Source: a virus (taxonomy: Duplodnaviria > Heunggongvirae > Uroviricota > Caudoviricetes). From it: a stretch of 30,513 bases of DNA. Below, piece after piece: positions 912-27,552 of this stretch. The translations under genes and the position numbers were made by a program. The stretch is taken from the IMG/VR virus record IMGVR_UViG_2778261535_000002; one strand, written 5' to 3'. Each line of letters starts with the position of its first letter. The stretch's first letter is position 1. Below the pieces are notes generated by a model. That model did no database searches. It saw nothing but the letters and a program-made list of their open reading frames with translations, and was not told the origin of the DNA.

Positions 912-915
912 GGAT

Positions 916-1614: not shown

Positions 1615-1943
1615 CAGTTCACCACCTGTTCAAACTCTGCGCTGAACTCAACACGCAACATACTGACCCGCGACGACCATTTTGCGCAGGTCACCTTTAT
1701 CTGCCGGTAGCCATAAGGCGGCGTCCACAGAAAGGCCTTCCAGCCCCCGTGCTCTGCCAGAAACGATTCCAGTGCCGTGGCCTCCTCGCGGGGAACAGAA
1801 AGCGTCACGCTGTACGTTTTCAGGTCGGCGTTCAGCCCGGCAGGCGCACGCTGAGAATAGCCATCACCAAAGCGCACCTTTCTTACAGAAGGGGCCGAAG
1901 CCACATCCATACCGGGTTTCACTTTCCAGCGGAAGGTTTTCAT
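1614..1943 (-). CDS. M: minor tail protein M
   Basis: 109 aa ORF, same length as lambda M; start overlaps the H stop. Confidence 0.85.
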   Translation of the reverse strand: MKTFRWKVKPGMDVASAPSVRKVRFGDGYSQRAPAGLNADLKTYSVTLSVPREEATALESFLAEHGGWKAFLWTPPYGYRQIKVTCAKWSSRVSMLRVEFSAEFEQVVN

Positions 1944-4501
1944 CGTCCACCTCCGGAGAACAGACCACCATCGCGCATCTGCCCGGTCACAACATCCATT
2001 GCCGCCTTACGGGCTACGTCATAAACAGCCTTCAGTGCCTGTGGCCCTATCTGACCGTTCGTGCCGTCGTTGTTAATCACCACATGGTTATTCTGCTCAA
2101 ACGTCCCGGACGCCTGCGAGCGGCTGTCCGCCATGCTGCCAGGTGTACCGACATAACCGCCGGTGGCATAGCCGCGCATCAGCCGGTAGAGATTTCCCAC
2201 GCCAATCCGGCTGGTTGCCTCCTTCGTGAAGACAAACTCACCACGGTGAACAATCCCCGCTGGCTCATATTTGCCGCCGGTTCCCGTAAATCCCCCGGTC
2301 GCAAAATGGAATTTCGCCGCAGCGGCCTGAATGGCTGTACCGCCTGACGCGGATGCGCCGCCACCAACAGCCACGCCAATGGCGCTGCCGATACTCCCGA
2401 CAATCCCCACCATTGCCTGCTTAAGCAGAATTTCTGTCATCATGGACAGCACGGAGCGGGTGAAGCTGCGCCAGTTCTGCTCACTGCCGGTCAGCATCGC
2501 CGCCATATTCTGTGCAATACCATCAAAGGTCTGCGTGGCTGCACTTTTTACCTGCGACATACTGTCCGTGGCGCTCTCTTCCCACTCACTCCAGCCGGAC
2601 TTCAGGCCTGCCATCCAGCTCCCGCGAAGCTGGTCTTCAGCCGCCCAGGTCTTTTTCTGCTCTGACATGACGTTATTCAGCGCCAGAGGATTATCGCCAT
2701 ACTGTTCCTTCAGGCGCTGTTCCGTGGCTTCCCGCGCTGCCTGCCGGTCAGTCAGCCCCCGGCTTTTCGCATCAATGGCGGCCCGTTTTGCCCGTTGCTG
2801 CTGTGCGAATTTATCCTCCTGCTGCGCCAGCGCGTTCAGGCGCTCCTGATACGTAACCTTGTCGCCAAGTGCAGCCAGCTGGCGTTTGTACTCCAGCGTC
2901 TCATCTTTATGCGCCAGCAGGGATTTCTCCTGTGCAGACAGCTGGCGACGTTGCGCCGCCTCCTCCAGTACCGCGAACTGACTTTCTGCCTTCCACAAAT
3001 CCCGGCGCTGCTGGCTGATTTTCTCATTCGCTCCGGCATGCTTCTCCAGCGTCCGGAGTTCTGCCTGAAGCGTCAGCAGGGCAGCATGAGCACTGTCTTC
3101 CTGACGATCGCCCGCAGACACCTTCACGCCGGACTGTTTCGGCTTTTTCAGCGTCTCTTCATAATCCTTTTTCGCCGCCGCCATCAGCGTGTTGTAATCC
3201 GCCTGCAGGATTTTCCCGTCTTTCAGTGCCTTGTTCAGTTCTTCCTGACGGGCGCTATATTTCTCCAGCGGCGTCTGCAGCCGTTCGTAAGCCTTCTGCG
3301 CCTCTTCGGTATATTTCAGCCGTGACGCTTCGGTATCGCTCTGCTGCTGCGCATTTTTGTCCTGTTGAGTCTGCTGCTCAGCCTTCTTTCGGGCGGCTTC
3401 AAGCGCAAGACGGGCCTTTTCACGATCATCCCAGTAACGCGCCCGCGCTTCATCGTTAACAAAATAATCATCCTTGCGCAGATTCCAGATGTCGTCTGCT
3501 TTCTTAAACGCAGCCTCTGCCTTAATCAGCATCTCCTGCGCGGTATCAGGACGACCAATATCCAGCACCGCATCCCACATGGATTTGAATGCCCGCGCTG
3601 TCCTGTCTGCCCAGGTCTCCAGCGTGCCCATGTTCTCTTTCAGGCGGCGGGTCTGGTCATCAAACCCTTTCGTTGCGGCCTCGTTCGCCGCCTGCAATGC
3701 CCCGGCTTCATCGCCGGAACGCTGTAACTGAGCAACATACGCAATCTGCTCCGCCGTCACGTTATGGAACTGGCGTGCCATCGCTGTCAGCCCCGACGTC
3801 GGGTCAGTGGTCAGCTTCCCGAAGGCTTCAGCGACCTTGTCCACCTCCACGCCGGATGCAGAGGAGAAACGCGCCACACTCTGGCTGATGGACGCAATCT
3901 GAGCCTCACCGCTTATCCCAGCCTTAACCAGTGCGCTGAGTGACTCGCTGGTCTGGTTAAACGTCAGCCCTGCCGCCTGCCCGGCTCTGGACAGGACCAG
4001 CATACGATCTGCCGTCAGACCCGACTGATTGCCGGAAAGGACCAGCGTTTTGTTGAAATCGGACAGGGTTGAGTTGCCCTGATACCAGGCATACGCCAGC
4101 GCACCGGTCGCCACTGCCAGCGAGGTGGCCCCGACCATCGGCAGGGTGATCGCACCGGCAAGTCCCCTGAACATGGGGATCATACCGCCGAAGGAGTCCT
4201 TCACCTGACCACCCTGTTGCAGCAGGATCAGCCACGGACTCTGCCCGCCTGCAAGCTGCGTGGCCACGTCGGTGAACTGTGCAGGAAGCATACGCATGGC
4301 GGCTTTATACTGTCCGACGGAAATCCCCGCTTTCTGTGCAGCCAGCGCCTGCCGGTTCATTGACTGTTCAACGACTGCCGCTGTTTTTTTCGCATCACTT
4401 TCCGTACCGGAAAAATGACGCCTGACTCTGGCCATCTGCTCGTCAAATCTGGCCGCATCCAGACTTAAATCAACGACCAGATCGCCTACCGGTTCAGCCA
4501 T
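1940..4501 (-). CDS. H: tail tape measure protein H
   Basis: 853 aa ORF, same length as lambda H; Ala/Gln-rich coiled-coil composition; position after G-T. Confidence 0.9.
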   Translation of the reverse strand: MAEPVGDLVVDLSLDAARFDEQMARVRRHFSGTESDAKKTAAVVEQSMNRQALAAQKAGISVGQYKAAMRMLPAQFTDVATQLAGGQSPWLILLQQGGQVKDSFGGMIPMFRGLAGAITLPMVGATSLAVATGALAYAWYQGNSTLSDFNKTLVLSGNQSGLTADRMLVLSRAGQAAGLTFNQTSESLSALVKAGISGEAQIASISQSVARFSSASGVEVDKVAEAFGKLTTDPTSGLTAMARQFHNVTAEQIAYVAQLQRSGDEAGALQAANEAATKGFDDQTRRLKENMGTLETWADRTARAFKSMWDAVLDIGRPDTAQEMLIKAEAAFKKADDIWNLRKDDYFVNDEARARYWDDREKARLALEAARKKAEQQTQQDKNAQQQSDTEASRLKYTEEAQKAYERLQTPLEKYSARQEELNKALKDGKILQADYNTLMAAAKKDYEETLKKPKQSGVKVSAGDRQEDSAHAALLTLQAELRTLEKHAGANEKISQQRRDLWKAESQFAVLEEAAQRRQLSAQEKSLLAHKDETLEYKRQLAALGDKVTYQERLNALAQQEDKFAQQQRAKRAAIDAKSRGLTDRQAAREATEQRLKEQYGDNPLALNNVMSEQKKTWAAEDQLRGSWMAGLKSGWSEWEESATDSMSQVKSAATQTFDGIAQNMAAMLTGSEQNWRSFTRSVLSMMTEILLKQAMVGIVGSIGSAIGVAVGGGASASGGTAIQAAAAKFHFATGGFTGTGGKYEPAGIVHRGEFVFTKEATSRIGVGNLYRLMRGYATGGYVGTPGSMADSRSQASGTFEQNNHVVINNDGTNGQIGPQALKAVYDVARKAAMDVVTGQMRDGGLFSGGGR

Positions 4502-5332
4502 ACCGGACTCCTCCTGCGATCCCTTCTGATACTGTCATCAGCATTACGTCATCCTCCGTCATGCCCGCCACATCCGGGGAAGCGGGGATAACTTCATTCC
4601 CGTCCGGGTCAAAGCGGACGCCTCCGGCAAGCCCTGCCGCTTTCTGCATCAGCACATCATCTTCAGGCTCTTCGTCAGCCTCACGCCGGTTCAGCAGACT
4701 GAAATCCAGCGGATGCATATCCGGATCGCTGAAAAACAGGCTGAGCACGGTGTACGTCAGCCCGGAAAAGTGCATATCCAGCAGAACATCATGAAAATAA
4801 TGGGTACTGTAAAAGCGGTGCCAGTCGGCATACTCCGTGGATGACATCCCGGCAAGCATGGCGCGCCAGTCGGGTCGCCCCATCTCACGCGCCAGTTTCA
4901 GGGCAAAACTCAGCTCACCGTCGAACACTTTCCCGCAGAAACAGGCTCTGCAGGCCCGGCGTCATCTGCCTGTTCAGGTGCATCATTCACAACAAACTCA
5001 GACATACCGGACAGACGCATTACCACATTTTCAGCCTGAGCAATTGCCTCTGTGGGCCAGGTGGTAAGCACTTCCTGCTCAATTTGTTTAACGGCTTCAT
5101 TCATGGATGGCATCTTTGTCTTCTGCGGATGGTTATGCCACAGGGACATCGCCACCAGAAAAGCACCGGTTCTGACGAGATCTTCCACGCTCACCTGTCG
5201 ATTGACACTGGAGCCCGCCTGTTCTGCCTGTCGTTTCAGCAGGGCGAGATGCTCAATACGCTGCAGGGCTGACAGTTCAGAAAGCGTGACGCTCACACCG
5301 TTATATTCAAATGATTCGGTTTTCAGGAACAT
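4494..5332 (-). CDS. T: tail assembly chaperone G-T fusion made by -1 programmed frameshift
   Basis: T-frame ORF 4494..4928 overlaps the G 3' end; - strand heptamer GGGAAAG at 4928..4934 (+ strand CTTTCCC) is the lambda G/GT slip site. Confidence 0.8.
4910..5332 (-). CDS. G: tail assembly chaperone G
   Basis: 140 aa ORF, same length as lambda G; slippery heptamer near its 3' end. Confidence 0.85.
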   Translation of the reverse strand: MFLKTESFEYNGVSVTLSELSALQRIEHLALLKRQAEQAGSSVNRQVSVEDLVRTGAFLVAMSLWHNHPQKTKMPSMNEAVKQIEQEVLTTWPTEAIAQAENVVMRLSGMSEFVVNDAPEQADDAGPAEPVSAGKCSTVS

Positions 5333-5347
5333 CGCTGACTCTCCGGA

Positions 5348-6088
5348 TTAACTGTCGGTGACGGTGATTTCTGCAACCGCAGCAAGTTCACCATTACCGG
5401 ATACAACCGGAATGTTGACCTTGCCTGCAGCAACGCCGTTCACGGTGATGGTCATACCGCTGACCGACACGGTGGCTTTTGTTTTATCCGCAGACACCGC
5501 ACGGAAGCTCTTGTCGGTTGCGCCCTCCGGCTGGAATGCCACGGTCAGCGTGGTGCTCTGCCCTTTCACCACCGAAGTGCTGGCAGGCGTCACGGTCATG
5601 CCGGTTGCCGCTGTTACCGTGCTGCGATCTTCTGCCATCGACGGACGCCCCACGTTGGTGACTTTCACCGTGCGGGTGATCACTTCCTTCGCCGTCACCG
5701 CCTTACCGATACTGCTGACCCAGCCGCGGAACACATCGACCGTGCCGTTCGGGAAGCGGATTTTATAGGCACGGGTATCCCCTTCATTAAACCACGCCAG
5801 CAGCGCCTGCTGCCCCTGCTCTCCGGGCATCCACGCCAGCGTGAAGCTGGTATCTCCGGCAGATTTCTGCCCCTGCCCGGTCGCAGTCCAGTCCGCATCT
5901 TCATCATCGAGATAGCTGTCGTCACAGGACTCAGCGGTCAGTTCGCCGGGCGTCAGGTCTTTAACTTTTGCCAGACGCAACCAGTCAACGTCTGAAAGCG
6001 GATTCGCATAAGGGTTACCGCTCCCCTTATAAACCCACAGGGTGGTCCCGGCACCTTTCACCGGCATTGTAGGATTTGGTACAGGCAT
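5348..6088 (-). CDS. V: major tail tube protein V
   Basis: ORF 5348..6118 trimmed to the [16 protein letters not shown] start, giving 246 aa as in lambda V. Confidence 0.85.
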
Positions 6089-6095
6089 AGCGTCC

Positions 6096-6491
6096 TCACA
6101 TTTCATAGGTAATGACATAAGTCAGATCGGCTGAACTCCACAGGCCCGCATCATCGTCGCGCCGGTAGTCATAGCCGCTGGCCACCATACTGGTGATCAA
6201 ATCTGACAGTGCCGGGATATCACTCATCACCGGATAAATCCGGGACTCCATCCACGCATCCAGCTCTGAATCCGGCACCTGAGCAGGCAGGAAAACTTCA
6301 ATATGCAACTCCGCCTGCCAGGTATCGCTGTCCAGCTCTTCGCCCGTGTATTCAGCGCCGGTGAGATAAACGGCAATTGCCGGAAAATCCGCCTCATCAA
6401 AAACAGCGGGGCGACCATCAAAAAGCGTCGCCCCGGTGTCATGCTTCTCCAGTGCATCCAGTACGGCTGCACGGAGTTCAGTATGTTTCAT
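6096..6491 (-). CDS. U: tail terminator protein U
   Basis: 131 aa ORF, same length and position as lambda U. Confidence 0.85.
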
Positions 6492-7066
6492 CGCTTTATT
6501 ACCATTCTCAGTTGATGCTGCAGCGCATAGCCCAGCTCTTTCGGAAGACGTTCACGCCGTATCCGCTCAATATTCTGTTTAAACGCCGTGGTCAGCGGCA
6601 CCGCCATCGGGATTTTCACCACATCAATGGGGTAACGGTTTTTCCCGGCCACACGCTGCATGACATGCCAGCGGCCATTTTTCAGTTGCTGAATAAACGC
6701 GCCGGGAATACGACGGTTTCCCACCACAAGCACGCTGCCGCCACCTTTCAGGGCTGAACGCTGCCCCTTTTTACGACGCCTGCGGCGGGACAGGACAACC
6801 CGCGCGTTACCCAGCCTGATGACGGGCAAATCCCCCCTGTTAACCCTGATTCTGGCCTGCGGATTTTTAACCGTGGCCCTTTTCAGCCTGGCCCTTTCCT
6901 TTACCAGTTTCCGGCGTACCTTTGTTTCACGGGCAACCTGTGCCGCCGACTGCGATATCGCGGATGAAGCAACGCGGTTAATGGCCATTGCGGCGGCACC
7001 AGGCACCGCCGTTTTGCTGATACGGCTGAGGTTTTCAACGGCCTGCTCAAGACCTTTTATGGCCAT
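6488..7066 (-). CDS. Z: tail completion protein Z
   Basis: 192 aa ORF, same length and position as lambda Z. Confidence 0.85.
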   Translation of the reverse strand: MAIKGLEQAVENLSRISKTAVPGAAAMAINRVASSAISQSAAQVARETKVRRKLVKERARLKRATVKNPQARIRVNRGDLPVIRLGNARVVLSRRRRRKKGQRSALKGGGSVLVVGNRRIPGAFIQQLKNGRWHVMQRVAGKNRYPIDVVKIPMAVPLTTAFKQNIERIRRERLPKELGYALQHQLRMVIKR

Positions 7067-7077
7067 ACATCCCCCTT

Positions 7078-7431
7078 TCAGCGGCGACGGTTAACGGCAG
7101 GCGGTACGCCCCGCCCAAGCCAGAGATGACAGCTTCCACCATCATCCGGCGAAACCCGGTCTATCCAGAAGTTTTCCTCACCGATGGTCAGCGTGTCTCC
7201 ACGCCGCAGCTGCCGCACCTCATCAGTCCGGACAAACAGGGACGGGCTGGAGCCTTCAACGCGCACGCCCTGTCCGGCATAGCTGATATTTTCAGGGTCA
7301 TCAAAAACACCACGTATCACAGCACCGGACTGCTCACCGGATGTCATGGTGGCTGACGTTCCCATGTACCCGCGTATCGTTTCATCGGCGCAGGCAATGG
7401 CAGCATCGAACAGGTTATCGAAATCAGCCAC
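7078..7431 (-). CDS. FII: head-tail connector protein FII
   Basis: 117 aa ORF, same length and position as lambda FII. Confidence 0.85.
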   Translation of the reverse strand: MADFDNLFDAAIACADETIRGYMGTSATMTSGEQSGAVIRGVFDDPENISYAGQGVRVEGSSPSLFVRTDEVRQLRRGDTLTIGEENFWIDRVSPDDGGSCHLWLGRGVPPAVNRRR

Positions 7432-7442
7432 AGCGCCTCCCG

Positions 7443-7838
7443 TTATTGCATTCTGGCCAGGCCACGTTCTGTCATTTCGGCTGCCACACCGGCAGAGACA
7501 CGAAACGCCGTTCCCGGCAGCACAAATGCCACAGGTTCATCCCGCGAGGCGTGAAGTGCATCAGTATGCAGCGTCACCAGTGCCACGACCGTGACCAGAG
7601 CAGCCGTATCAGTCACGGTACCTGGCTGCGCTGACACCACCTCATTTTCATGCCCGGTCAGCGCATTTTCCGGGCTGACAGACGTGTCCTGACCGGCAGC
7701 GTCATCCGTGTCATCAAGCTCCTCTTCCAGCTCTGCCACACGGAGCGCCAGTTCTTCTTTCGTCCCCGTCAGGCTGACATCACGGTTCAGTTGCTCACCC
7801 AGCACCTGAAGACGGGCAATCAGTTCATCTTTCGTCAT
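7443..7838 (-). CDS. FI: DNA packaging protein FI
   Basis: ORF 7443..7877 trimmed to the MTKDELIARLQ start, which is preceded by GGAGGAG; about 131 aa. Confidence 0.8.
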   Translation of the reverse strand: MTKDELIARLQVLGEQLNRDVSLTGTKEELALRVAELEEELDDTDDAAGQDTSVSPENALTGHENEVVSAQPGTVTDTAALVTVVALVTLHTDALHASRDEPVAFVLPGTAFRVSAGVAAEMTERGLARMQ

Positions 7839-7879
7839 GGACTCCTCCACAGAGAAACAATGGCCCCGAAGGGCCACGA

Positions 7880-8905
7880 TTACGCCAGTTGTACGGACAC
7901 GAACTCATCAGGGTCAGCCAGCAGCATCAGCGGTGCTGACTGAATCATAGTGAACTCACGCGCCGGATCGCCGGATGTCTTCCAGTTTTTCGGATAACGG
8001 GGAGACGCATTAATACCCTCACTCAATGCATCCGCATCCTGAATACAACCATAGGTGCGCAGACCGCGTGCCTGAGTGTTCCCCAGTACCATCGTGTTGT
8101 CCGGCAGAAAGTTCTTTTTGACGCCGTTTTCCACGTACTGTCCGGAATACACGACGATGGCCACATCGCCATACATCCCCTTATAGGACACCGCTTTACC
8201 CAGGTCTTTTACCGCTGTCTCCAGCTCGGAATGAGAGCCGCGACGGGTATCCAGCTTCTCCCTGACGGCTTTGAAGGAACGGAACAGCGCCCAGCCTTTC
8301 GGATCAAACACGATGATATTCACCACACCGCTGGCGTTCAGCGCGTAGGCTTCGATATCGTCGGTCGGGTCATACGTGGACTTGTCGCGATTGCTCCACT
8401 CCGTGCCGCCGGACTGTGTGATGTTATTCGCCTCACTGCGGCCCATATCCACCTCAACCGGATCGAAGGCTTCACCGGTCATGGTGTATTTGCCCTTAAG
8501 CACAGCAGAAACGGCCTGCATCTCTTCGACCTGAGCAATGGCAAGCTCCTCGTCTCGCATGTTCTGCATGATGATGCGACGGCGGCGGTAAGCCGGGTCC
8601 GCCAGATTCTGTGGATCTTCATCCGGCAGGCGACGCAGGGTCATCTGCGGATTCACCTCATGCTTGGGCTTGACATATCCCGGTGTAAATTCAGAGGTGG
8701 AGCCGCCACGGGAGCGGATAACCTCACCGGAAACAATCGGCGAAACGTACAGCGCCATGTTTACCAGTCCCGGAATTTGTGAGAGATAGACTTTCTCCGT
8801 GGTGAAGGGATAGCTCTCACGGAAAAAGAGACGCAGAAACAGCGGATCAAACTTAAATTTCTGCTCATTTGCCGCCAGCAGCTGGGCGGTTGTGTACATC
8901 GACAT
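7880..8905 (-). CDS. E: major capsid protein E
   Basis: ORF trimmed to the MSMYTTAQLLAANEQKFKFDPLF start (341 aa); recalled lambda E sequence. Confidence 0.9.
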   Translation of the reverse strand: MSMYTTAQLLAANEQKFKFDPLFLRLFFRESYPFTTEKVYLSQIPGLVNMALYVSPIVSGEVIRSRGGSTSEFTPGYVKPKHEVNPQMTLRRLPDEDPQNLADPAYRRRRIIMQNMRDEELAIAQVEEMQAVSAVLKGKYTMTGEAFDPVEVDMGRSEANNITQSGGTEWSNRDKSTYDPTDDIEAYALNASGVVNIIVFDPKGWALFRSFKAVREKLDTRRGSHSELETAVKDLGKAVSYKGMYGDVAIVVYSGQYVENGVKKNFLPDNTMVLGNTQARGLRTYGCIQDADALSEGINASPRYPKNWKTSGDPAREFTMIQSAPLMLLADPDEFVSVQLA

Positions 8906-8960
8906 AAAAAAATCCCGTAAAAAAAGCCGCACATGCGGCCTTTAGTGATGAAGGGTCAGG

Positions 8961-9293
8961 TTAAACGATGCTGATTGCCGTTCCGGCAAACGCGGTCCGT
9001 TTTTTCGTCTCGTCGCTGGCAGCCTCCGGCCAGAGCACATCCTCATAACGGAACGTGCCGGACTTGTAGAACGTCAGTGTGGTGCTGGTCTGGTCAGCAT
9101 CAACCGCCAGAATGCCAACGGCAGCACCGTCGGTGGTGCCATCCCACGCAACCAGCTTACGGGTGGAGGTATCCGGCATCAGCGGGGTCATTGCAGGCGC
9201 TTTCGCACTCAATCCGCCGGGCGCGGTTGCGGTATGAGCCGGGTCACTGTTGCCCAGCGGCTGGTAATGGGTAAAGGTTTCTTTGCTCGTCAT
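8961..9293 (-). CDS. D: capsid decoration protein D
   Basis: ORF trimmed to the [12 protein letters not shown] start (110 aa); recalled lambda D sequence. Confidence 0.9.
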
Positions 9294-9302
9294 AAACATC
9301 CC

Positions 9303-9908
9303 TTACACTGGTGTGTTCAGCAAATCGTTAACGGCATCAGATGCCGGGTTACCTGCAGCCAGCGGTGCCGGTGCCCCCTGCATCAGACGATCCAGCGCAG
9401 TGTCACTGCGCGCCTGTGCACTCTGTGGTGCTGCGGCCAGAATGCGGCGGGCCGTTTCCACGGTCATACCGGGGGTTTCGGCCAGCACGCGGGCCTGTTC
9501 TTCGCGTCCGTGAGCCTCCTCACAGTTGAGGATCCCCATAATGCGGCTGTTTTCTGCCGCAACCGCAGCGGTGATCTGCGCGTTCACGTCCGGCTGCGCC
9601 GCGCTGGCGTTTTCGCCCTCCGTCGCTGGCACCACGTCAGTAACGTCAGCCTGCGAAGCAGTGGCTGAAACAGTTGTTGATTGAGTCTCTTTGGTCATTC
9701 GCCCTCCTGAGAGACGGGATTTACGTGCATCCAGTGCATCACGCATAACGGTGATCGCATCGGTGCTGTTGACAAGTTCATCAGCCAGTCCGGCATCAAT
9801 GGCCTCCTGACCGCTGTACACTGCAGCCTCGGTATCCAGCACAGCCTGCACGGACAGGCCGGTATATGCCGACACCTTCTGCGCAAACATCCGGCGGGTT
9901 GCATCCAT
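9303..9908 (-). CDS. Nu3: capsid scaffolding protein Nu3, in-frame internal start within C
   Basis: In-frame Met at C residue 239 (MDATRRMFAQKV) gives the C-terminal 201 aa, as in the lambda C/Nu3 nested arrangement. Confidence 0.7.
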   Translation of the reverse strand: MDATRRMFAQKVSAYTGLSVQAVLDTEAAVYSGQEAIDAGLADELVNSTDAITVMRDALDARKSRLSGGRMTKETQSTTVSATASQADVTDVVPATEGENASAAQPDVNAQITAAVAAENSRIMGILNCEEAHGREEQARVLAETPGMTVETARRILAAAPQSAQARSDTALDRLMQGAPAPLAAGNPASDAVNDLLNTPV

Positions 9909-10602
9909 CCGGGACTGCAGTGTCTCCCGGACGTCATCCGGAAGATGGCTGTAGGGGTTGCCATCCACCTTATGGCTGCCGCTGTAAATCAGCGTGATTT
10001 CCACACCCTGTTTCTCCAGCGCAGCACCGTAATTACTGTGAGCCATCATGACGCCGATGGAGCCTGTCCGGGCGGTCTGCGTGACCAGACGCCGGGAGGC
10101 GGCGCTGGCAAGCAGCTGACCTGCACTGCAGTTCATGTCGTTGGCCAGCGCCCATACCGGTTTTATGTCTCGCACACGGGCGATGATGTCAGCACAGTCA
10201 AATGCTCCCGCCACCATCCCGCCCGGTGTGTCCATATCGAGCAGAATGCCGTCCACCATCGGATCGCTGGCAGCCTGTTGCAGACGGGCGATAATGCCGT
10301 TGTAACCGGTCATTCCCGAATACGGCTGCAGCGCCCGCGTCCGGCTGACCAGCGTACCGGACACCGGCAGCACGGCGATGCCGTTCATGACCTGATAACT
10401 GCGGGCCTGTCGTGGTCCGTCATCATCACCGGATAACGCCAGCGCCGCGGGTGCCTCTCCGGCAGTCAGGCTGTCGCCGGACACCGCATCCGTCAGGCGA
10501 CTGATCCCAAGCTGGCCTGCAAGCGCACAAAAGAAAACCCGCGCATAGGCGGGTTCAAGCATCAGCGGCTCATTAAAAGCCATGCTGGCAATATGCGGGA
10601 GA

Positions 10603-10622
<20 letters not shown>
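9303..10622 (-). CDS. C: capsid assembly protease C (apparent GTG start)
   Basis: ORF 9303..10757 trimmed to VTAELRNLPHIASMAF, giving 439 aa as in lambda C; overlaps the B 3' end. Confidence 0.8.
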
Positions 10623-14303
<3,681 letters not shown>

Positions 14304-14329
<26 letters not shown>

Positions 14330-14849
14330 TCAGCAACCCCGGTATCAGTTCATCCAGCGCGGCTGCTTTGTTCATGGCTTTGATGATATCCCGTTTCAGG
14401 AAATCAACATGTCGGTTTTCCAGTTCCGGAAAACGCCGCTGCACCGACAGGGGGATCCCGTCGAGAATACTGGCAATTTCACCTGCGATCCGCGACAGCA
14501 CGAAAGTACAGAATGCGGTTTCCACCACTTCAGCTGAGTCTCTGGCATTCTTCAGTTCCTGTGCGTCGGCCTGCGCACGCGTAAGTCGATGGCGTTCGTA
14601 CTCAATAGTCCCTGGCTGGAGATCTGTCTCGCTGGCCAGCCGCAGTTCTTCAACTTCCCGGCGCAGCTTTTCGTTCTCAATTTCAGCATCCCTTTCGGCA
14701 TACCATTTTATGACGGCGGCAGAGTCATAAAGCACCTCATTACCCTTGCCACCGCCTCGCAGAACGGGCATTCCCTGTTCCTGCCAGTTCTGAATGGTAC
14801 GGATACTCGCACCGAAAATGTCAGCCAGCTGCTTTTTGTTGACTTCCAT
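14304..14849 (-). CDS. Nu1: terminase small subunit Nu1
   Basis: 181 aa ORF starting MEVNKKQLADIFGASIRTIQNWQEQGMPV, recalled lambda Nu1; adjacent to cos. Confidence 0.9.
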
Positions 14850-15075
14850 TGTTCATTCCACGGACAAAAACAGAGAAAGGAAACGACAAAGGCCAAAAAG
14901 CTCGCTTTCAGCACCTGTCGTTTCCTTTCTTTTCAGAGGGTATTTTAAATAAAAACATTAAGTTATGACGAAGAAGAACGGAAACGCCTTAAACCGGAAA
15001 ATTTTCATAAATAGCGAAAACCCGCGCGCCTGACGCCCCGTAGCCTGCCGGATCGCTGGAAAGGACCCGCAAATG
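14850..15075 (-). other. cos: cos site: cosB (about 14850..15026), cosN 12-mer (15027..15038), cosQ side (about 15039..15075)
   Basis: Flanks match recalled lambda left-end and right-end sequence across the junction; the 12-mer between them is CGCCTGACGCCC on the + strand. Confidence 0.75.
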
Positions 15076-15236
15076 ATAATAATTATCATCTACATGTCAC
15101 AACGTGCATCTACGCCATCAAACCACGTCAAATAATCAATTATGACGCAGGTATCGTATTAATTGATCTGCATCAACTTAACGTAAAAACAACTTCAGAC
15201 AATACAAATCAGCGACACTGAATACGGGACAACCTC

Positions 15237-15431
15237 ATGTCAACGAAGAACAGAACCCGCAGAACAACAACCCGCAACATCCGCTTTCCTAACCAAATGA
15301 TTGAACAAATTAACATCGCTCTTGATCAAAAAGGGTCCGGGAATTTCTCAGCCTTGGTCATTGAAGCCTGCCGTCGGAGACTAACGTCAGAAAAGAGAGC
15401 ATATACATCAATTAAAAGTGATGAAGAATGA
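15237..15431 (+). CDS. hypothetical small protein, possible ribbon-helix-helix DNA-binding fold
   Basis: 64 aa ORF; basic N-terminus then RNIRFPNQMIEQINIALDQKG...NFSALVIEACRRRL, resembling a CopG/Arc-type strand-helix-helix pattern; weak GGGA upstream of the ATG. Confidence 0.4.
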   Translation: MSTKNRTRRTTTRNIRFPNQMIEQINIALDQKGSGNFSALVIEACRRRLTSEKRAYTSIKSDEE

Positions 15432-15595
15432 ACATCCCGCGTTCTTCCCTCCGAACAGGACGATATTGTAAATTCACTTAATTACGAGGGCATTGCAGTA
15501 ATTGAGTTGCAGTTTTACCACTTTCCTGACAGTGACAGACTGCGTGTTGGCTCTGTCACAGGCTAAATAGTTTGAATGATTAGCAGTTATGGTGA

Positions 15596-15802
15596 TCAGT
15601 CAACCACCAGGGAATAATCCTTCATATTATTATCGTGCTTCACCAACGCTTCCTCAATTGCTCTGAATGCTTCCAGAGACACCTTATGTTCTATACATGC
15701 AATTACAACATCAGGGTAACTCATAGAAATGGTGCTATTAAGCATATTTTTTACACGAATCAGATCCACGGAGGGATCATCAGCAGATTGTTCTGTATTC
15801 AT
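15596..15802 (-). CDS. hypothetical protein (lambda right-end small ORF equivalent)
   Basis: 68 aa ORF at the position and size of a small ORF near the lambda right end; AT-rich. Confidence 0.5.
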
Positions 15803-16086
15803 TTTGTCGCTCCATGCGCTTGCTCTTCATCTAGCGGTTAAAATATTACTTCAAATCTTTCTGTATGAAGATTTGAGCACGTTGGCCTTACATACATCTG
15901 TCGGTTGTATTTCCCTCCAGAATGCCAGCAGGACCGCACTTTGTTACGCAACCAATACTATTAAGTGAAAACATTCCTAATATTTGACATAAATCATCAA
16001 CAAAACACAAAGAGATCAGACCAGATTGAAACGATAAAAACGATCTTGCAAACTACGCACTCTCATATCATATGGAAGGTTTATCT

Positions 16087-16497
16087 ATGGATCAGGTAGT
16101 CATTTTTAAACAAATATTTGATAAAGTTCGAAACGATTTAAACTATCAATGGTTTTATTCTGAGCTAAAACGTCACAATGTCTCACATTACATTTACTAT
16201 TTAGCCACAGAGAATGTTCATATTGTATTAAAAAATGATAATATAGTGTTATTAAAGGGCCTAAAAAACATTGTGTCTGTCAAATTTTCAAAGGATAGGC
16301 ATCTTATAGAAACGACCTCTAATAAGCTGAAATCCAGAGAGATCACATTTCAGGAATACAGAAGAAACCTTGCTAAAGCAGGAGTTTTTCGGTGGGTTAC
16401 AAATATCCACGAACAAAAAAGATATTACTATACCTTTGATAAATCATTACTCTTTACTGAAAACATACAGAGCACATCACAAATATTTCCACACTAA
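16087..16497 (+). CDS. hypothetical protein, possibly DUF1398/YbcV-like
   Basis: ORF 16072..16497; start moved to the MDQVVIF Met at 16087, which has GGAAGG upstream; AT-rich moron-like gene. Confidence 0.45.
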
Positions 16498-16795
16498 ACC
16501 ATAACGTCCGGTTTCTTCTACCCCAGCACCGGACTGGCTGACATGAAGAGCAACCCCGCGTTCAGTTGACGTGTTAATAACCCGGTGTACATCGTTTTTG
16601 ATTATTCCCCCACACTTGTGCAGAAGGAGTTCCCCGTCGGGCTACGGTCATGGTTAATGCGGGAATACAGCGACGATACAGCGCATTATGTGTCAGGCTT
16701 GAATACCTTTATCCGTTAAAAGGGATATCAGTTAAGTTATCCTGCGTAGGGTATAAGCCATTATCAAGCCCACCCGTAGATAGGCTTTGTAATGG

Positions 16796-17053
16796 CTACT
16801 TCGCTTTTGCTTCCGCTCGCTTACGCCGGCGCTCTTCTTTCCTCTCGGCTTTTGCCATGTCCATGAATGCCTGCATGATCGAGTTCCGCATCATGTAGCT
16901 AACAAAGTGATGATTGACACAGCCGTTGAGGCGCAGCTGCTCGCCAAACTCATCCACCGAGGCCAATGCTTCCATCATGCCCTTCTCGCCTTTCATGAAC
17001 TCTGAGAAGTCGCGCCCCGCTCTGGAGGCGCATTCAATGACACGATCAATCAT
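16796..17053 (-). CDS. hypothetical protein, Lys/Arg/Glu-rich C-terminus
   Basis: 85 aa ORF whose ATG overlaps the stop of the upstream KilA-N gene (ATGA), implying co-translation. Confidence 0.5.
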   Translation of the reverse strand: MIDRVIECASRAGRDFSEFMKGEKGMMEALASVDEFGEQLRLNGCVNHHFVSYMMRNSIMQAFMDMAKAERKEERRRKRAEAKAK

Positions 17054-17547
17054 CCCGGAAGCCCGGGGATCGTAATCTGCAGCTGGTTAGCCAGGGAGTT
17101 AATCTCAGCGACCAACACTGGCTTCGTATAGCGCCATGCTGCCAGCCCTTGTCCGCAGAAGCTCGCCATGTCTTTCTTCTGGTCAAACTCATGACATTTC
17201 ATGTTGAGCTGCGCACTTAAGCTGTTGCGATGCTGAAGTTCTCCGGTGAAGTAGTCATCGAGGACTTTATAGGCCGCGTACTTGAACCCGGGGTTTAGCC
17301 ATGCTGCATAATCATAAGCAACAAACTTCCCGCCATATGTTCCACCGTGTACACCGCGCTCAGTAAAAACCACAGATTCGTGGTTTTTCTCCAGCTCGGC
17401 TAAGAACTCTTTGGTCTGCTTGTTTCGCAGGTAGTAGTACGGAGATTCAGATTCACTTTTACCACTGGCTTTCCACATATCAGTGAGGCAGATCATGCCA
17501 TCTTCACCGATACGAATTGGTTGATTGAAGAGGGTTAATGATTTCAT
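17050..17547 (-). CDS. KilA-N domain protein
   Basis: 165 aa ORF with a KilA-N-like pattern (GMICLTDMWKASG ... GGTYGGKFVAYDYAAWLNPGFKYAAYKVLDDYF); sits downstream of two intrinsic terminators after Rz. Confidence 0.6.
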   Translation of the reverse strand: MKSLTLFNQPIRIGEDGMICLTDMWKASGKSESESPYYYLRNKQTKEFLAELEKNHESVVFTERGVHGGTYGGKFVAYDYAAWLNPGFKYAAYKVLDDYFTGELQHRNSLSAQLNMKCHEFDQKKDMASFCGQGLAAWRYTKPVLVAEINSLANQLQITIPGLPG

Positions 17548-17661
17548 AGCGTATACCTACTCTTTGAAATGAACCTTTGCCGCACAGGAAACCAGCCCAC
17601 CGAGGCTCGCCAGCACTAACTGGTATCCTCAAAGGCCCATTCCAAAGGAGCTGGTTCGGTG

Positions 17662-17720
17662 TAAAAAAACATGCGTTGCGGTACGCATTTATTGCAAAAA
17701 AGCCCCGCATCGCGAGGCTC
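17662..17720 (-). terminator. two tandem intrinsic terminators downstream of Rz
   Basis: - strand ATGCGT-ACCGCA-ACGCAT followed by GTTTTTTTA, then GCCTCGC-GAT-GCGGGGC followed by TTTTTTGC. Confidence 0.55.
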
Positions 17721-17750
17721 ATTAAATGGACTTTGTGATTTGCAAAAAAA

Positions 17751-18005
17751 TTATTTCAGGCATTGCGTCCTGATGTACTCCTGCATTTCGATAGTCGCGT
17801 TAGCATCAGCAAGCTCCTTTGTATATCTGGCGTCGAGTTCTGCTACATCATGTTGACGCTTCTGCATGTCAGCGATTGTGGATGTGGCCTTATCGCGCTG
17901 CTCTTTGTAGGTAATGGCGTTATCACGGTAATGATTAACAGCCCATGACAGGCAGACGATGATGCAGATAACCAGAGCGGAGATAATCGCGGTTACTCTG
18001 CTCAT
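17751..18005 (-). CDS. Rz: i-spanin Rz, naturally shortened (84 aa versus 153 aa in lambda)
   Basis: N-terminus [34 protein letters not shown] matches recalled lambda Rz; C-terminus ends ...RTQCLK with the conserved Cys; the central part is missing. Confidence 0.8.
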
Positions 18006-18478
18006 ACCTCAATCTCTCTGACCATTCCGCCAGCTTCTTTGAATTTTGCAATCAGGTTGTCAGCCTTATGCTCGAACTGACCATAACCAGCGCCCGGCAG
18101 TGAAGCCCAGATATTGCTGCAACGGTCGATTGCCTGACGAATATCACCGCGGTCAATCATCGGTAAAGCGCCACGCTCTTTAATCTGCTGCAATGCCACA
18201 GCGTCCTGACTTTTGGGAGAGAAGTCTTTCAGGCCAAGCTGCTTACGATAGGCATCCCACCAACGGGAAAGAAGCTGGTAACGTCCGGCTGCTGTTGATT
18301 TGAGTTTTGGGTTTAGCGTGACAAGTTTGCGAGGGTGATCGGAGTAATCAGTGAATAGCTCTCCGCCTACAATGACGTCATAACCATGATTTCTGGTTTT
18401 CTGACGTCCGTTATCTGTTCCCTCTGACCACGCCAGCATATCGAGGAACGCCTTACGTTGATTATTGATTTCCACCAT
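18002..18478 (-). CDS. R: endolysin R (lytic transglycosylase)
   Basis: 158 aa ORF starting [35 protein letters not shown], recalled lambda R. Confidence 0.9.
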
Positions 18479-18785
18479 CTTCTACTCCGGCTTTTTTAGC
18501 AGCGAAGCGTTTGATAAGCGAACCTATCGAGTCAGTACCGATGTAGCCGATGAACACGCTCGTTATATAAGCGAGATTGCTACTTAGTCCGGCGAAGTCG
18601 AGAAGGTCACGAATGAACCAGGCGATAATGGCGCACATCGTTGCGTCGATTACTGTTTTTGTAAACGCACCGCCATTATATCTGCCACGAAGGTACGCCA
18701 TTGCAAACGCAAGGATTGCCCCGATGCCTTGTTCCTTTGCCGCGAGAATGGCGGCTAACAGGTCATGTTTTTCTGGCATCTTCAT
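18462..18785 (-). CDS. S: holin/antiholin S (S107 start, with the S105 start at Met3)
   Basis: 107 aa ORF starting [22 protein letters not shown], recalled lambda S, including the MKM dual-start motif. Confidence 0.9.
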
Positions 18786-18902
18786 GTCTTACCCCCAATA
18801 AGGGGATTTGCTCTATTTAATTAGGAATAAGGTCGATTACTGATAGAACAAATCCAGGCTACTGTGTTTAGTAATCAGATTTGTTCGTGACCGATATGCA
18901 CT

Positions 18903-18940
18903 GGCAAAACGGCAGGAGGTTGTTAGCGCAACCTCATGCC
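18903..18940 (-). terminator. candidate intrinsic terminator or attenuator hairpin upstream of S
   Basis: - strand GGCA-t-GAGGTTG-CGCTAA-CAACCTC-c-TGCC followed by GTTTTGCC. Confidence 0.4.
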
Positions 18941-19027
18941 ACCCGCTTTCACGAAGGTCATGTGTAGAAGGCCGCAGCGTAACTATCACTGATGAATTCA
19001 GGATAGCCAGTGGCTACGGCTCAGTTA

Positions 19028-19103
19028 TGGTGCTGGTTAACGGACTTGAACCGCTACCCATTCGCTTACAAGGCGACTGCTCTACCATTGGAGCTAAACC
19101 AGC
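19028..19103 (-). tRNA. tRNA-Thr, anticodon UGU, with encoded CCA
   Basis: Hand-folded cloverleaf: 7/7 acceptor pairs (GCTGGTT/AACCAGC), 4 bp D stem, anticodon loop CTTGTAA, T arm AGCGG-TTCAAGT-CCGTT, discriminator A, CCA. Confidence 0.7.
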
Positions 19104-19108
19104 ATGTT

Positions 19109-19183
19109 TGGCGGGACAGCGTGGACTCGAACCACGATAAGAAGGTTAACAGCCTTCCGTAATGACCTTTATACGACTGACCC
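19109..19183 (-). tRNA. tRNA-like gene, probably tRNA-Asn (anticodon GUU), slightly atypical
   Basis: Acceptor stem 6/7 paired, D stem 3 bp plus one mismatch with GG in the loop, perfect anticodon stem GAAGG/CCTTC with loop CTGTTAA, T arm CGTGG-TTCGAGT-CCACG, discriminator G, CCA. Confidence 0.5.
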
Positions 19184-19184
19184 A

Positions 19185-19229
19185 AATAAAAAAAGCCACC
19201 GTTGCAACTTAAGAGTCACTAACGGCAGC
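19185..19229 (-). terminator. hairpin plus T7 run immediately downstream of the Q-like gene (tR'-like candidate)
   Basis: - strand CTGCCGTT ... AACGGTGG stem followed by CTTTTTTTATTTG, directly abutting the 5' end of the tRNA-like gene. Confidence 0.4.
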
Positions 19230-19246
19230 TTACCTTCTAATTATGG

Positions 19247-19765
19247 CTAAATGGATAATTGCATGTCAAGGCTTTTAACAGCAACATGCTTAACTTTCTC
19301 AACACGTTTACGCATTTTGAAAGCATTTTGCATTGGCTGGTACAAAACAAATAACGACGCTTTCAGGATGTCGTCAATTTCGTTTCTACAGGTTGCCAGT
19401 GAAGGTTTTCTCCATCCCTCGCCACCACGTCCACACATCTTGCGTGGCTTTGCAGTCGCGTGATAGTAGGATGCAATTGCTCGCTTAGATGAACCATGAG
19501 CGTAGTAGCTGAGGAGGATGCCAAAGGCTTTCTTGTCAATGCACATGACGGAATCGACGACCTGAGAAATCAACATTCCATCATCATCATTGCACATTGG
19601 CCTTGTCATAACTCTTCCCGGCTCTACGCTCTCCATGAACTTCGCTATTACGCTGCTCATACGCTTTTCCAGACGACCTGAATAAACCCATGCGCCCCAC
19701 AGTTCAAGCCAGCCATTCAGCCACTCATGCTGTTCTTTGGTGAGGTTTAGTTCTCTTATGCCCAC
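19247..19765 (-). CDS. putative late-gene antiterminator Q, not lambda type
   Basis: 172 aa ORF in the Q slot between ninI and the lysis cassette; sequence is unlike recalled lambda Q (207 aa). Confidence 0.55.
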
Positions 19766-20427
19766 GCGCCTTCTCCCTGTACCTGAATCAATGTGAGATT
19801 TCCGCAGAACACTGCGCCGGTATCGATATACATCTGGTTGGCAAATTTGAGTGGTTTCACTGCTGGCGTATGACCAAAGATGAACGTGTCCGCGCCTTTA
19901 ATTTCTTTCACGATCCCGTCTTGTGAGTTGCTGATTCGTTTGCGGTTCCAGATTACCTGCTGATGATCAACTGGCTTTCCAAACTCGTATTCGTCAAAGG
20001 GATAATCGGCGTGGCAGATAACATATTTTTTATCTTTGCTCACCAGTTCGATGATTAACGGAAGTTCTTCTGCTTTATGGGCAAGAGCTTTAGCCAGAAT
20101 TTCTTTGTCGTAATCGAGATTAAAGAACCAGCCACCGCCATTAAGCAGCCAGTGATTGACGTTTCCACGCTCTGATAAGCCATCAATCATCATTTGCTCA
20201 TGGTTTCCACGTACAGCTCTGAACCAGGGGAATGTGATTAATTCCAGACATTCGACGTTCTCTGTACCGCGATCAACCAAATCGCCCACCGAGATAAGCA
20301 GGTCTTTTTTGGTGTCGAATCCTATCGTCTCCAGTTTTTTCATCAGGTTCGTGTAGCATCCGTGCAGATCGCCAACTACCCAAATATTTCGGTATTTGCT
20401 GCCATCAATTTTTTCGTAATAGCGCAT
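19756..20427 (-). CDS. ninI: Ser/Thr protein phosphatase NinI (lambda orf221 type)
   Basis: ORF trimmed to the [25 protein letters not shown] start, which has GGAG upstream; GDLHG and GNHE metallophosphatase motifs. Confidence 0.85.
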
Positions 20428-20611
20428 CTCTTTCACTCCATCCGCGATGAACCATGAGAACGTCGTTGACGATGGCGTGCATTTTCCCGTCTTTATCATC
20501 AACGTATTTTCTGACCGTACCGCGACTACATTTCAGTCTGCGTGCTACTTCTGTCTGGTTTCCGTATGCTTCAACGAGCATGTCTGGAATGGTTTTTACT
20601 GAGAACGTCAT
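20405..20611 (-). CDS. ninH: NinH
   Basis: 68 aa ORF starting [36 protein letters not shown], recalled lambda NinH. Confidence 0.85.
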
Positions 20612-21219
20612 GCGGCCTCACTTCTGCTATTTCGCAGGTCTTTGAGTTTCTGCTGATACTCCGCCTTGATGGCCCTGCACTCTTCGACAGTCCAGCGATG
20701 GCGGTTATGGTTTGATTCGATTTCGTCTACTGCTTCCTGCCCGATGCGATTAATCAGTTCGACGCGATACGGAACGAGATTTCCGCTTTTGTGCTGGTTG
20801 CACACCACGCATTGCTTGTGAATATTGCGTTCATCAAATCGGAGTTGAGGTGCCGCAGCAGTTGTCCGGTAATGTCCGGCATCCCACTGAGCAGACGTGA
20901 GCGTTCCGCACGAGATACATGGTAAGTCGCGGTCTCTTTCTCTGATGAAGGCGTTTACGGCTTGTTGGGCTTGTTTAATCCAGTAACTGCGGGGCTTTAA
21001 GGCGAGTTTTCGAATCTTAAGTTTATCTTTCTGTCTCTGATCCTCTCGTCGTCGTTTCTTCTCTGCTGCTTTTTCCGCTTTTTCGCGTTCTTTACTTCGT
21101 CGTTCGAGTGCTATCTTGGTTCCACACTCTGGAGAGCACCACCACTGATTAGCGAATGCAGGGTGAAACCATTCCCGACATTCATCGTTTTTACATCGTC
21201 TTCGCGCTGGTTTAGCCAT
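20608..21219 (-). CDS. ninG: NinG (Rap) recombination protein
   Basis: 203 aa Cys- and basic-rich ORF in the lambda NinG position. Confidence 0.8.
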
Positions 21220-21388
21220 CGTCTTCTTCCTCGTACATTGAGCTATTCGGATCGCTCATCAGTTCTGCGCAGCAGTGCTCACACACATGAACTTCCAGCA
21301 CATGCAGCTTCTGACTGCAGTTAGCGCACGTTAAAGCCCGCTCGACGCTTTCTTTCTGGTATTGAAGGGATTGGGATGGGCTAAGCAT
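21212..21388 (-). CDS. ninF: NinF
   Basis: ORF 21212..21442 trimmed to the [26 protein letters not shown] start (58 aa), recalled lambda NinF. Confidence 0.75.
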
Positions 21389-21788
21389 GGCTTTCACCAT
21401 TAAAAAGTCGCTTGTAAGCATCAATGTCTCGTTTTGCTTCACCGAGCTTTCGTCTTAATTCCATGTTTTCTGATTCAAGCTTTTCCATGTCTTGTTGGTA
21501 TCGATCGCGGTGTTCTTTCCATGCTTTTCGATACGCCTTCATGTATGTCGTATTGGCCTTTCTCTTTGCCTGACGAACCGCATGGTGGTTTTTCACAAAC
21601 CAGTCAGGGTCGTTAAATGCTGCTCTGGCGCATGTATACCAATAATTTGTTGCCTCCCTGTTTAGCCAATAAATACTGATAAATGGCAACCGGATAGACA
21701 CCATTTTTCGTTGTGACTCTTTCTCGCCAAACATGTGTCCTTTTTTGATGCTAAGGCCAAATCCAGGTTGAATTAAAAGCATTGTCAT
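21381..21788 (-). CDS. hypothetical protein between ninE and ninF (NinX-like position), coiled-coil C-terminus
   Basis: ORF 21381..21824; the MTMLLIQ start at 21788 overlaps the NinE stop as ATGA; lambda has no gene here. Confidence 0.5.
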
Positions 21789-26558: not shown

Positions 26559-26615
26559 TAGGAAGTAAGTTTTATGTTGACGGCACAGTCAACTTGGCAT
26601 AGATTAATTAAACCA

Positions 26616-26676
26616 AGCCCAGCCCCGTTCGCAGACAATTGTTAATATCTGCATAACGGCTCTGGGCTATTTTTTT
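26616..26676 (+). terminator. long hairpin plus T7 run between cI and the downstream NYN gene
   Basis: AGCCCAG ... (nested CCGTT/AACGG and GCAGA/TCTGC pairs) ... CTGGGCT followed by ATTTTTTT. Confidence 0.55.
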
Positions 26677-26685
26677 GGGACTCTT

Positions 26686-27543
26686 ATGAAGAAAGCAGCA
26701 ATTTTAATTGATGCGGGTTTTTTCATGCAGCGTGTTCATGCTACGCATCGTAAACACTTCGCCGAGCATGAACTGACTGCGCAATGCATAATGAAAGTAA
26801 TATGGTCAATGGTTCTTTCCCATCTTAATGGAAAACGTCAATCACAAGAACGTAGGGAACCGCTTGAGCTTTATAGAATTTACTTCTATGACTGTCCACC
26901 ACTCGACATTCAAACACGCCTTCCACTTCCTGAGCCTGGCAATAAGACGCCTGGTCGCAAGAATTTCAAACTCGAAAAATCATATATTCTGAGAACGGAG
27001 CTGCATGAAGAGTTAAGAAAAACTCGAAAAACAGCCTTAAGATTAGGGAATCTTGTTGATAATAAGCGATGGCAACTAACTACATTCTCCCTTGATGCTC
27101 TGATGAAAGGAACGAAAAAATGGGATGAACTGACAAATGATGATTTTTACTATGACATCAAACAAAAACAAGTTGATATCAAGCTAGGGATGGATATCAC
27201 GACTTTAGCTTATGAAAAACTTGTTGATGTAATTGTCCTTGTTGCTGGGGACTCAGACTTTGTGCCTGCCGCCAAACACGCCAGAATTAAAGGTATTGAT
27301 TTTATTCTTGATCCACTAAGACAGAATGTTACCCCATCACTGTCAGAGCACATTGATGGAGTTCAGTCATACAGCTTGATATCAGGACTTGCCGATGCTT
27401 TACATGTTGAGCCAGACCCGGCACCTGACTGGTGGGAAGATCGAAAAAAAGGCAAGCCTAGAGGAAAAAACAATAGCGGTAAACGCAGGTATGGAAACAC
27501 TCAAGCTGAGTCTGCAAAGAAACATCAAAGAAATAAACGATAA
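26686..27543 (+). CDS. NYN/PIN-like domain protein (predicted nuclease) occupying the rexA-rexB slot
   Basis: 285 aa ORF; N-terminal AAILIDAGFF and later VDVIVLVAGDSDFVPAAKHARIKGIDFIL fit the NYN/LabA-like pattern with conserved acidic residues; Lys/Arg-rich C-terminal tail; unlike recalled RexA or RexB. Confidence 0.6.
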   Translation: MKKAAILIDAGFFMQRVHATHRKHFAEHELTAQCIMKVIWSMVLSHLNGKRQSQERREPLELYRIYFYDCPPLDIQTRLPLPEPGNKTPGRKNFKLEKSYILRTELHEELRKTRKTALRLGNLVDNKRWQLTTFSLDALMKGTKKWDELTNDDFYYDIKQKQVDIKLGMDITTLAYEKLVDVIVLVAGDSDFVPAAKHARIKGIDFILDPLRQNVTPSLSEHIDGVQSYSLISGLADALHVEPDPAPDWWEDRKKGKPRGKNNSGKRRYGNTQAESAKKHQRNKR

Positions 27544-27552
27544 TCCCATCAA

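Follow-up and report, generated by a model that had tools for sequence, protein, structure and literature searches.

Does a lambda-type cos site still function when five of the 12 bases of its cohesive end depart from those of lambda? The question was raised by a 30,513-nt stretch of viral DNA (IMG/VR record IMGVR_UViG_2778261535_000002), the whole of which is referred to here as the window. An initial annotation, made from the sequence alone, had described a divergent 12-nt core within an otherwise lambda-like cos region and had offered two readings, namely a changed cohesive end, possibly incompatible with lambda packaging extracts, or an inactivated cos in a cryptic prophage. Our analysis favors, with a probability of roughly 80%, a lambda-type cos site that works and whose cosN is a rare natural allele.

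The cosN core and the rest of the cos region

The window was aligned to lambda, DE3, Turner, PhiR11_1, Kati and 2H10, and to bases 1-199 of lambda NC_001416 (features in Table 1). All six references read GGGCGGCGACCT, so the lambda 12-mer given in the initial annotation was correct. Its count of five differences was also right: relative to lambda, the window is changed at cohesive-end positions 6 (G>T), 8 (G>A), 9 (A>G), 10 (C>G) and 12 (T>G), and positions 1-5 (GGGCG), 7 and 11 are common to both. The clustering of these changes in the cosB-proximal half, as then described, holds for four of the five but not for position 6, with which the left half ends. Read on the minus strand, the site and its surroundings are ...GGGTCCTTTCCAGCGATCCGGCAGGCTACG GGGCGTCAGGCG CGCGGGTTTTCGCTATTTATG..., and GGGCGTCAGGCG occurs only once in the window (15027-15038, minus strand; matched in 0 of 100 shuffles). 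The lambda 12-mer GGGCGGCGACCT was not found in the window, even with two mismatches permitted. When the window was compared with NC_001416 by blastn, two long alignments were obtained (window 72-15026 to lambda 14971-13, and window 15039-16685 to lambda 48502-46868), and the 12-mer was the sole unaligned gap around cos. Between the window and Turner, 11 differences were found in 391 nt, and 5 of these fell within the 12-mer; with a hypergeometric P of 4.5e-6, this clustering is not due to chance. An assembly artefact was considered as the origin of GGGCGTCAGGCG and rejected, because the identical 12-mer recurs in many independent assemblies.

Table 1. Positions of the cos elements and terminase genes in the window, and of a satellite from E. 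coli
Feature	Position	Strand	Remarks
cosN core	15027..15038	(-)	unique match, from alignments; predicted 12-nt 5' cohesive end GGGCGTCAGGCG (lambda, GGGCGGCGACCT)
CG dinucleotide directly 5' of top-strand nick	15039..15040	(-)	nick between TACG and GGGC; same in all aligned phages
CG dinucleotide directly 3' of the 12-mer, bottom-strand nick site	15025..15026	(-)	same in all aligned phages
cosQ heptamer GGGTCCT	15062..15068	(-)	23 nt upstream of top-strand nick, lambda spacing; invariant in alignments
cosQ-cosN spacer	15039..15061	(-)	three substitutions vs lambda and Turner: -19 G>A, -10 A>G, -5 T>C
cosB R3 repeat	14974..14989	(-)	equivalent to lambda bp 50-65; identical to lambda
cosB R2 repeat	14915..14930	(-)	AGAAAGGAAACGACAG; identical to lambda
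cosB R1 repeat	14874..14889	(-)	TTGTCGTTTCCTTTCT; first base C>T vs lambda
nu1, terminase small subunit	14304..14849	(-)	181 aa; 178/181 identical to lambda gpNu1 (98%)
A, terminase large subunit	12404..14329	(-)	641 aa; 638/641 identical to lambda gpA (99.5%)
Satellite in locus L204	about 11348-21615 (locus coordinates)		E. coli 95-3322, NZ_CP027461.1 1442589-1482627

The window has the cosQ spacing, the CG pairs, the GGGC and G5 of cosN, the cosB and the terminase of a lambda-like cos. In the layout TACG-GGGCGTCAGGCG-CGCGGG, a CG pair adjoins each of the two nick positions, which are 12 bp apart, and the upstream heptamer GGGTCCT is what we take to be cosQ (lambda bases 48473-48479). cosQ has been reported as conserved among lambda-like phages (PMC4669245). 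Just upstream of the 12-mer, the three spacer substitutions appear as CCGACAGGTTACG>CCGGCAGGCTACG and CCGGCG>CCAGCG. The changes at -10 and -5 are common to other variant-allele phages and satellites in the flank tables, and they therefore form a short mosaic tract together with the 12-mer. This tract spans roughly 25-35 bp (about -10 to +12, plus a private change at -19) and is surrounded by Turner- and lambda-like sequence, a mosaic pattern which suggests that the allele probably entered the phage by recombination, the partner being either a second lambda-like phage or a helper-embedded PICI satellite.

The cosB repeats R3, R2 and R1 (extent of R3 taken from PMC9026076) lie at a fixed distance from cosN and adjoin the small terminase gene, which starts at 14849. 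Between lambda bases 13-190 and the window, one substitution and one 1-bp deletion were found, and the window form is the common natural one. The R2-R1 spacer of the window (14890-14914) is 25 nt, as in most of the natural lambda-like cos sites compared; that of the lambda reference is 26 nt, with an additional G at about bp 138.

A cohesive end unlike that of lambda, as implied by the initial annotation, is thus borne out as a prediction for five of the 12 bases, and the same five mismatches separate the window from the cross-annealing classic lambda group (lambda, 21, 434 and phi80; GGGCGGCGACCT). Both chromosome ends derive from the same concatemer cosN, so interior changes stay self-complementary, and the window ends should anneal to each other as stably as those of lambda do. 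The nearest-neighbour dG37 calculated for the 12-mer duplex was -17.9 kcal/mol for the window and -18.2 kcal/mol for lambda, and the GC content is 10/12 in both. The incompatible step would be the annealing of window ends to lambda ends, with mismatches at 5 of 12 positions, and DNA from phages with GGGCGTCAGGCG is accordingly not expected to anneal to lambda arms. With 8 matched positions, against 10 in lambda, the 16-bp cosN of the window has less two-fold symmetry, which could somewhat reduce the efficiency of nicking.

Natural variation at cosN and the carriers of the allele

Variation at cosN was surveyed by scanning IMG/VR in the lambda-type cos context TACG-N12-CGCGGGTTTTCGC. Changes at cohesive-end positions 1, 2, 3 and 4 were found in 0, 1, 0 and 0 contigs, respectively, the sole position-2 variant being an unrelated phage, and the alleles recovered showed no variation at positions 5 and 11. 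Natural variation at lambda-type cos sites in IMG/VR was found at positions 6-10 and 12, and essentially never at positions 1-5 and 11; thus, all five changes in the window fall at variable positions. A degenerate scan returned 71 contigs with a base other than T at position 12, in which GGGCGGAAGGCG was present in 51 and the window allele in 15, and GGGCGGCAGGCG, GGGCGTCAGACG, GGGCGGCAGACG, GGGCGGCTGACG and GGGCGGCGACCG were each present in one. Two one-step neighbours of GGGCGTCAGGCG were therefore observed (GGGCGGCAGGCG and GGGCGTCAGACG), and GGGCGGAAGGCG lies two steps from GGGCGTCAGGCG via the observed intermediate GGGCGGCAGGCG. Of the first 120 lambda-type cos sites listed from IMG/VR, 115 had the lambda allele. 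The allele of the window is therefore a rare one, at roughly 1% or less. Position 6 held a base other than G in 18 contigs. The left half of cosN, which contains this position, is described as under selection (PMC4669245), and our literature search found no published test of the G6T change; its natural recurrence (16 of the 18 contigs) suggests that G6T is tolerated.

Differences at bp 7-12 are common among lambda-like cosN sites, as described by Feiss and colleagues (PMC4669245). The cosN sites of N15 and phiD326 differ from lambda at positions 9 and 12, and that of Gifsy-1 at 8, 9 and 11 (PMC4669245); the N15 site was read directly from its sequence as GGGCGGCGTCCG. In mEp213 and LLS, cosN is GGGCGGCGCGCT, which differs at 9 and 10 (PMC12315714). 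Since right-half variants have been published for N15, phiD326, Gifsy-1 and mEp213/LLS, the kind of variation seen in the window is already documented. The initial annotation had taken the lambda 12-mer to be shared across the classic lambdoid phages; this is correct for the classic set, but these five phages and several of the alleles surveyed here differ from it. The CG pairs flanking the nicks are highly conserved and the left half of cosN is also conserved (PMC4669245), and the relevant passage of PMC9303873, citing Vahanian et al. 2017 (Virology 509:140), gives the first 4 bp, along with the flanking 2 bp, as the conserved part. Lambda terminase gave equal yields with cosN-lambda and cosN-N15, no cosN specificity was found between the lambda and N15 terminases, and right-half cosN mutations showed little phenotype because TerL is anchored by cosB; when the ends were mismatched at two bases, cyclisation was still possible at a cost of about 4-fold in yield (PMC4669245). 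Searching the literature text for the exact 12-mers matched only unrelated primer sequences.

The exact window 12-mer was found in 15 IMG/VR contigs, where it is combined with two classes of cosB and at least five of upstream flank, as would be expected of a functional, exchangeable allele and not of a lesion. An exact 30-mer scan of IMG/VR gave 11 contigs, and a 39-mer with the allele was found in 61 of 5426 complete E. coli genomes. Most IMG/VR loci with the allele were in satellite context; three (L007, L014 and L201) were in phage context (cos-Nu1-A), and L007 and the window share 99% identity across about 9.6 kb. The neighbouring allele GGGCGTCAGACG was also found in phage context (L191, cos-Nu1-A). 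Nine metagenome contigs carried the window allele, seven in satellite context and two (L210 and L211) in phage context, the latter combining the variant 12-mer with a lambda-type left flank. No metagenome contig ended exactly at the 12-mer, and the site was internal in 9/9. The allele was not found in deposited phage genomes (0 of 50,697 records). Its only match in the plasmid scan was a chromosome-sized record; with one genome per species, the exact 30-mer gave no match, and a 19-mer gave, among the matches listed, only chance matches in high-GC taxa (Streptomyces, Mesorhizobium). The exact cos configuration of the window was not found in complete E. coli RefSeq genomes, where the best match was 96.4% over 111 nt and about 96% more widely. 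In the loci sampled, the allele is carried mainly by helper-embedded PICI satellites, and in a few cases by true lambda-like phages. A distant phage contig (IMGVR_UViG_3300005992_000001, 3652-3680) had TACG-GACTGTAAAGGG-CGCGGGTTTTCGC with a cosQ-like GGGTCCC upstream, and may have the architecture of a lambda-type cos around a wholly different 12-mer.

In the three E. coli loci examined, the allele lies inside satellites of about 10.5 kb that sit within the E gene of the carrier prophage and are without a large terminase. Their gene order is integrase, AlpA-like HTH regulator, Icd-like protein, DUF4222 protein, primase, SSB, own major capsid and decoration proteins, HTH protein, cos and own small terminase. 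The layout in E. coli 95-3322 (L204) and in loci L142-L144 is that of the helper-embedded PICI class, which was described with 11capE (Mageeney et al. 2023, PMC10111431); 11capE lacks terS, whereas these satellites have an annotated TerS. The satellites of these loci also include a DUF2971/Abi gene. Some satellite TerS proteins are 73% identical to Nu1 and accompany a lambda-type cosB, and others are about 35% identical, with an unrelated cosB (ATGAGCATTTTAAGGGGACTGG). The L204 locus has two cos sites in the same orientation, 15.2 kb apart: that of the carrier prophage, GGGCGGCGACCT, at locus coordinate 4780, and that of the embedded satellite, GGGCGTCAGGCG, at locus coordinate 19980. Packaging from one to the other would leave ends mismatched at 5 of 12 bases. 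Since the 95-3322 satellite has no large terminase of its own, it is presumably packaged by the terminase of its carrier or by a similar one. In an 8651-nt human gut metagenome contig (L207, ORSG01002381), the satellite integrase does not precede cos and TerS but lies about 2.4 kb downstream of them, as would fit a satellite present in the gut sample in an excised circular or a tandem form.

This distribution raises the possibility that the allele is selected rather than neutral, and that it defines a cohesive-end incompatibility group, in which the ends of satellites and some phages would not anneal to those of co-resident lambda-type elements and the circularisation of chimeric packaging products would be blocked, the window phage having captured the allele of a satellite or donated its own. 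Such a role would fit with most carriers being helper-embedded PICIs and with the different alleles of helper and satellite in 95-3322, and a five-base mismatch should be much worse than the two-base mismatch that cost about 4-fold in yield (PMC4669245). We nevertheless consider it improbable: related satellite cos junctions were found in 414 E. coli genomes and the allele in only 61, alleles other than this one, for example GGGCGGAAGGCG, are likewise found in satellite-context contigs, and neutral drift with recombination explains the pattern equally well. The wider proposal that cosN alleles are compatibility groups of helpers versus satellites, with GGGCGTCAGGCG mainly a satellite allele that would prevent annealing between satellite and helper ends, and the window phage a lambda-immunity helper that exchanged its cosN with such a satellite, is likewise improbable; if it were true, cosN exchange would alter which chimeric packaging products circularise.

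Terminase, integrity of the phage and proposed function of the site

The lambda-like flanks and terminase of the initial annotation were confirmed, with 178 of 181 Nu1 residues and 638 of 641 gpA residues matching lambda. A second alternative is that the window has a new cosN specificity with a co-adapted terminase, so that neither it nor lambda could cut the site of the other. For this, one may point to the five of 12 bases that differ, against two in the tested N15 case, and to the three gpA substitutions D185E, S268A and I459V, which are conservative relative to lambda gpA and are candidate functional differences. However, the window gpA is 99.5% identical to that of lambda, each of the three substitutions was also present beside the lambda cosN allele, and gpA at least 98.9% identical to that of lambda adjoins four different non-lambda alleles in 28 loci. 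No gpA residue specific to variant cosN alleles was found when 43 lambda-allele loci were compared with 28 variant-allele loci. Furthermore, the lambda-allele prophage of 95-3322 hosts a GGGCGTCAGGCG satellite without a large terminase, and the lambda and N15 terminases are without cosN specificity (PMC4669245). A new specificity is thus very improbable. The possible incompatibility with lambda packaging extracts that the initial annotation had raised is also unlikely, as is one with lambda terminase, because right-half variants were cut by lambda terminase in published work and gpA has no allele-specific residue.

The window represents a complete lambda-like phage that is very closely related to lambda, runs in reverse orientation across cos and has no satellite insertion. 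By tblastn against lambda, W, B, C, D, E, FI, FII, Z, U, V, G, T, H, M, L and K were all full length (86-100% amino-acid identity), as were Nu1, A, S, R, N, sieB, cIII, O, P and ren, and the immunity genes cI (98%), cro and cII (both 100%). The rexAB, Q and bor regions are replaced relative to lambda (no tblastn match), and ninB is only 44% identical. Regions that differ from lambda were found at window 15039-16685, 16700-17800, 19030-19760 and 26560-27550, and identity to lambda is only 91% across 1.6 kb on the right side of cos, compared with 97% on the Nu1 side. The replaced regions are typical lambdoid mosaicism around an otherwise lambda-immunity phage.

Neither a loss of late genes nor changes at required cos positions were found, and with head, tail and cI/cro/O/P genes all full length the phage is not a decayed cryptic prophage. 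The notion of the initial annotation that the site is an inactivated cos in such a prophage, its substitutions being damage beyond what terminase can cut, could draw on the absence of the allele from deposited phage genomes, its carriers being prophages, satellites and metagenome contigs, and on the location of G6T in the functionally more sensitive left half (PMC4669245), but is contradicted, and hardly credible, since every tested lambda late, lysis, immunity and replication gene is full length, decay would not put 5 of the 11 Turner differences into 12 nt while sparing cosQ, cosB and the nick flanks, one and the same 12-mer is found on many different flanks in phages and cos-dependent satellites, and all changes are at naturally variable positions.

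For the preferred reading, a working cos site with a rare natural cosN allele, we propose the following mechanism. In a terminase that is essentially that of lambda, Nu1 would anchor on cosB (R3, I1, R2 and R1) and gpA would be placed on cosN, where it would nick at both conserved CG-flanked positions, 12 bp apart. The virion DNA would then have the 5' overhang GGGCGTCAGGCG in place of GGGCGGCGACCT, and termination would proceed via the unchanged cosQ. If terminase reads only the left bases (GGGCG) and the CG pairs flanking the nicks, positions 6-10 and 12 could drift or be swapped. Because lambda terminase is indifferent to right-half variation according to the work of the Feiss laboratory, the window phage should have functional ends that are unlike those of lambda. 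Both the cleavage positions and the viability of a phage with this cos are what we infer from the conserved anatomy of the site.

Comparison with known cos sites

The cos of the window shares with that of lambda the same cosQ, spacing, CG pairs, R3 and R2, and has a nearly identical R1; it differs at positions 6, 8, 9, 10 and 12 and by three spacer substitutions, and the predicted ends of the two are not complementary. Search tools that rely on the lambda 12-mer, for example in genome-end prediction or annotation, will miss it.

Like the window, N15/phiD326, Gifsy-1 and mEp213/LLS have a conserved GGGCG and conserved nick flanks, with changes mainly in the cosB-proximal half, and N15 has G at position 12, as in the window. 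In contrast, the window has five changes, including position 6, whereas the N15, Gifsy-1 and mEp213 types have two or three, and its variant is paired with a near-exact lambda terminase and cosB, whereas the terminases of N15 (TerL 65%, PMC4669245), Gifsy-1 and mEp213 have diverged. If the phage is viable, the rule from the Feiss laboratory that lambda terminase ignores most of the interior of the cohesive end would extend from two or three changes to five. We regard two points as mildly new, namely that an allele with five changes accompanies a terminase that is in essence exactly that of lambda, and that in the loci sampled this allele is carried mainly by helper-embedded PICI satellites.

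The phage PhiR46_1 (PV340565; host ECOR13 in the record) provides a related allele that works, GGGCGGAAGGCG, and has the left flank CCGGCAGGCTACG as in the window, a lambda-type cosB and a gpA identical to that of the window at 635 of 641 residues. GGGCGGAAGGCG shares positions 8-12 (AGGCG) with the window allele and differs at 6 and 7 (GA vs TC). It is also found in YDC107_1 and in many prophages, it is the commoner of the two (51 vs 15 IMG/VR contigs) and, unlike the window allele, it is present in deposited phage genomes.

The helper-embedded PICIs have a cos with a 12-mer identical to that of the window, the same cosQ in most of those sampled and, in some, a lambda-type cosB. Their arrangement differs from that of the window in that cos lies inside the E gene of a prophage, without a large terminase, with an HTH gene upstream, their own TerS downstream and often an unrelated cosB. 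An allele that is common to lambda-like phages and PICIs hints at an exchange of cos between helpers and satellites, which we regard as a modest lead.
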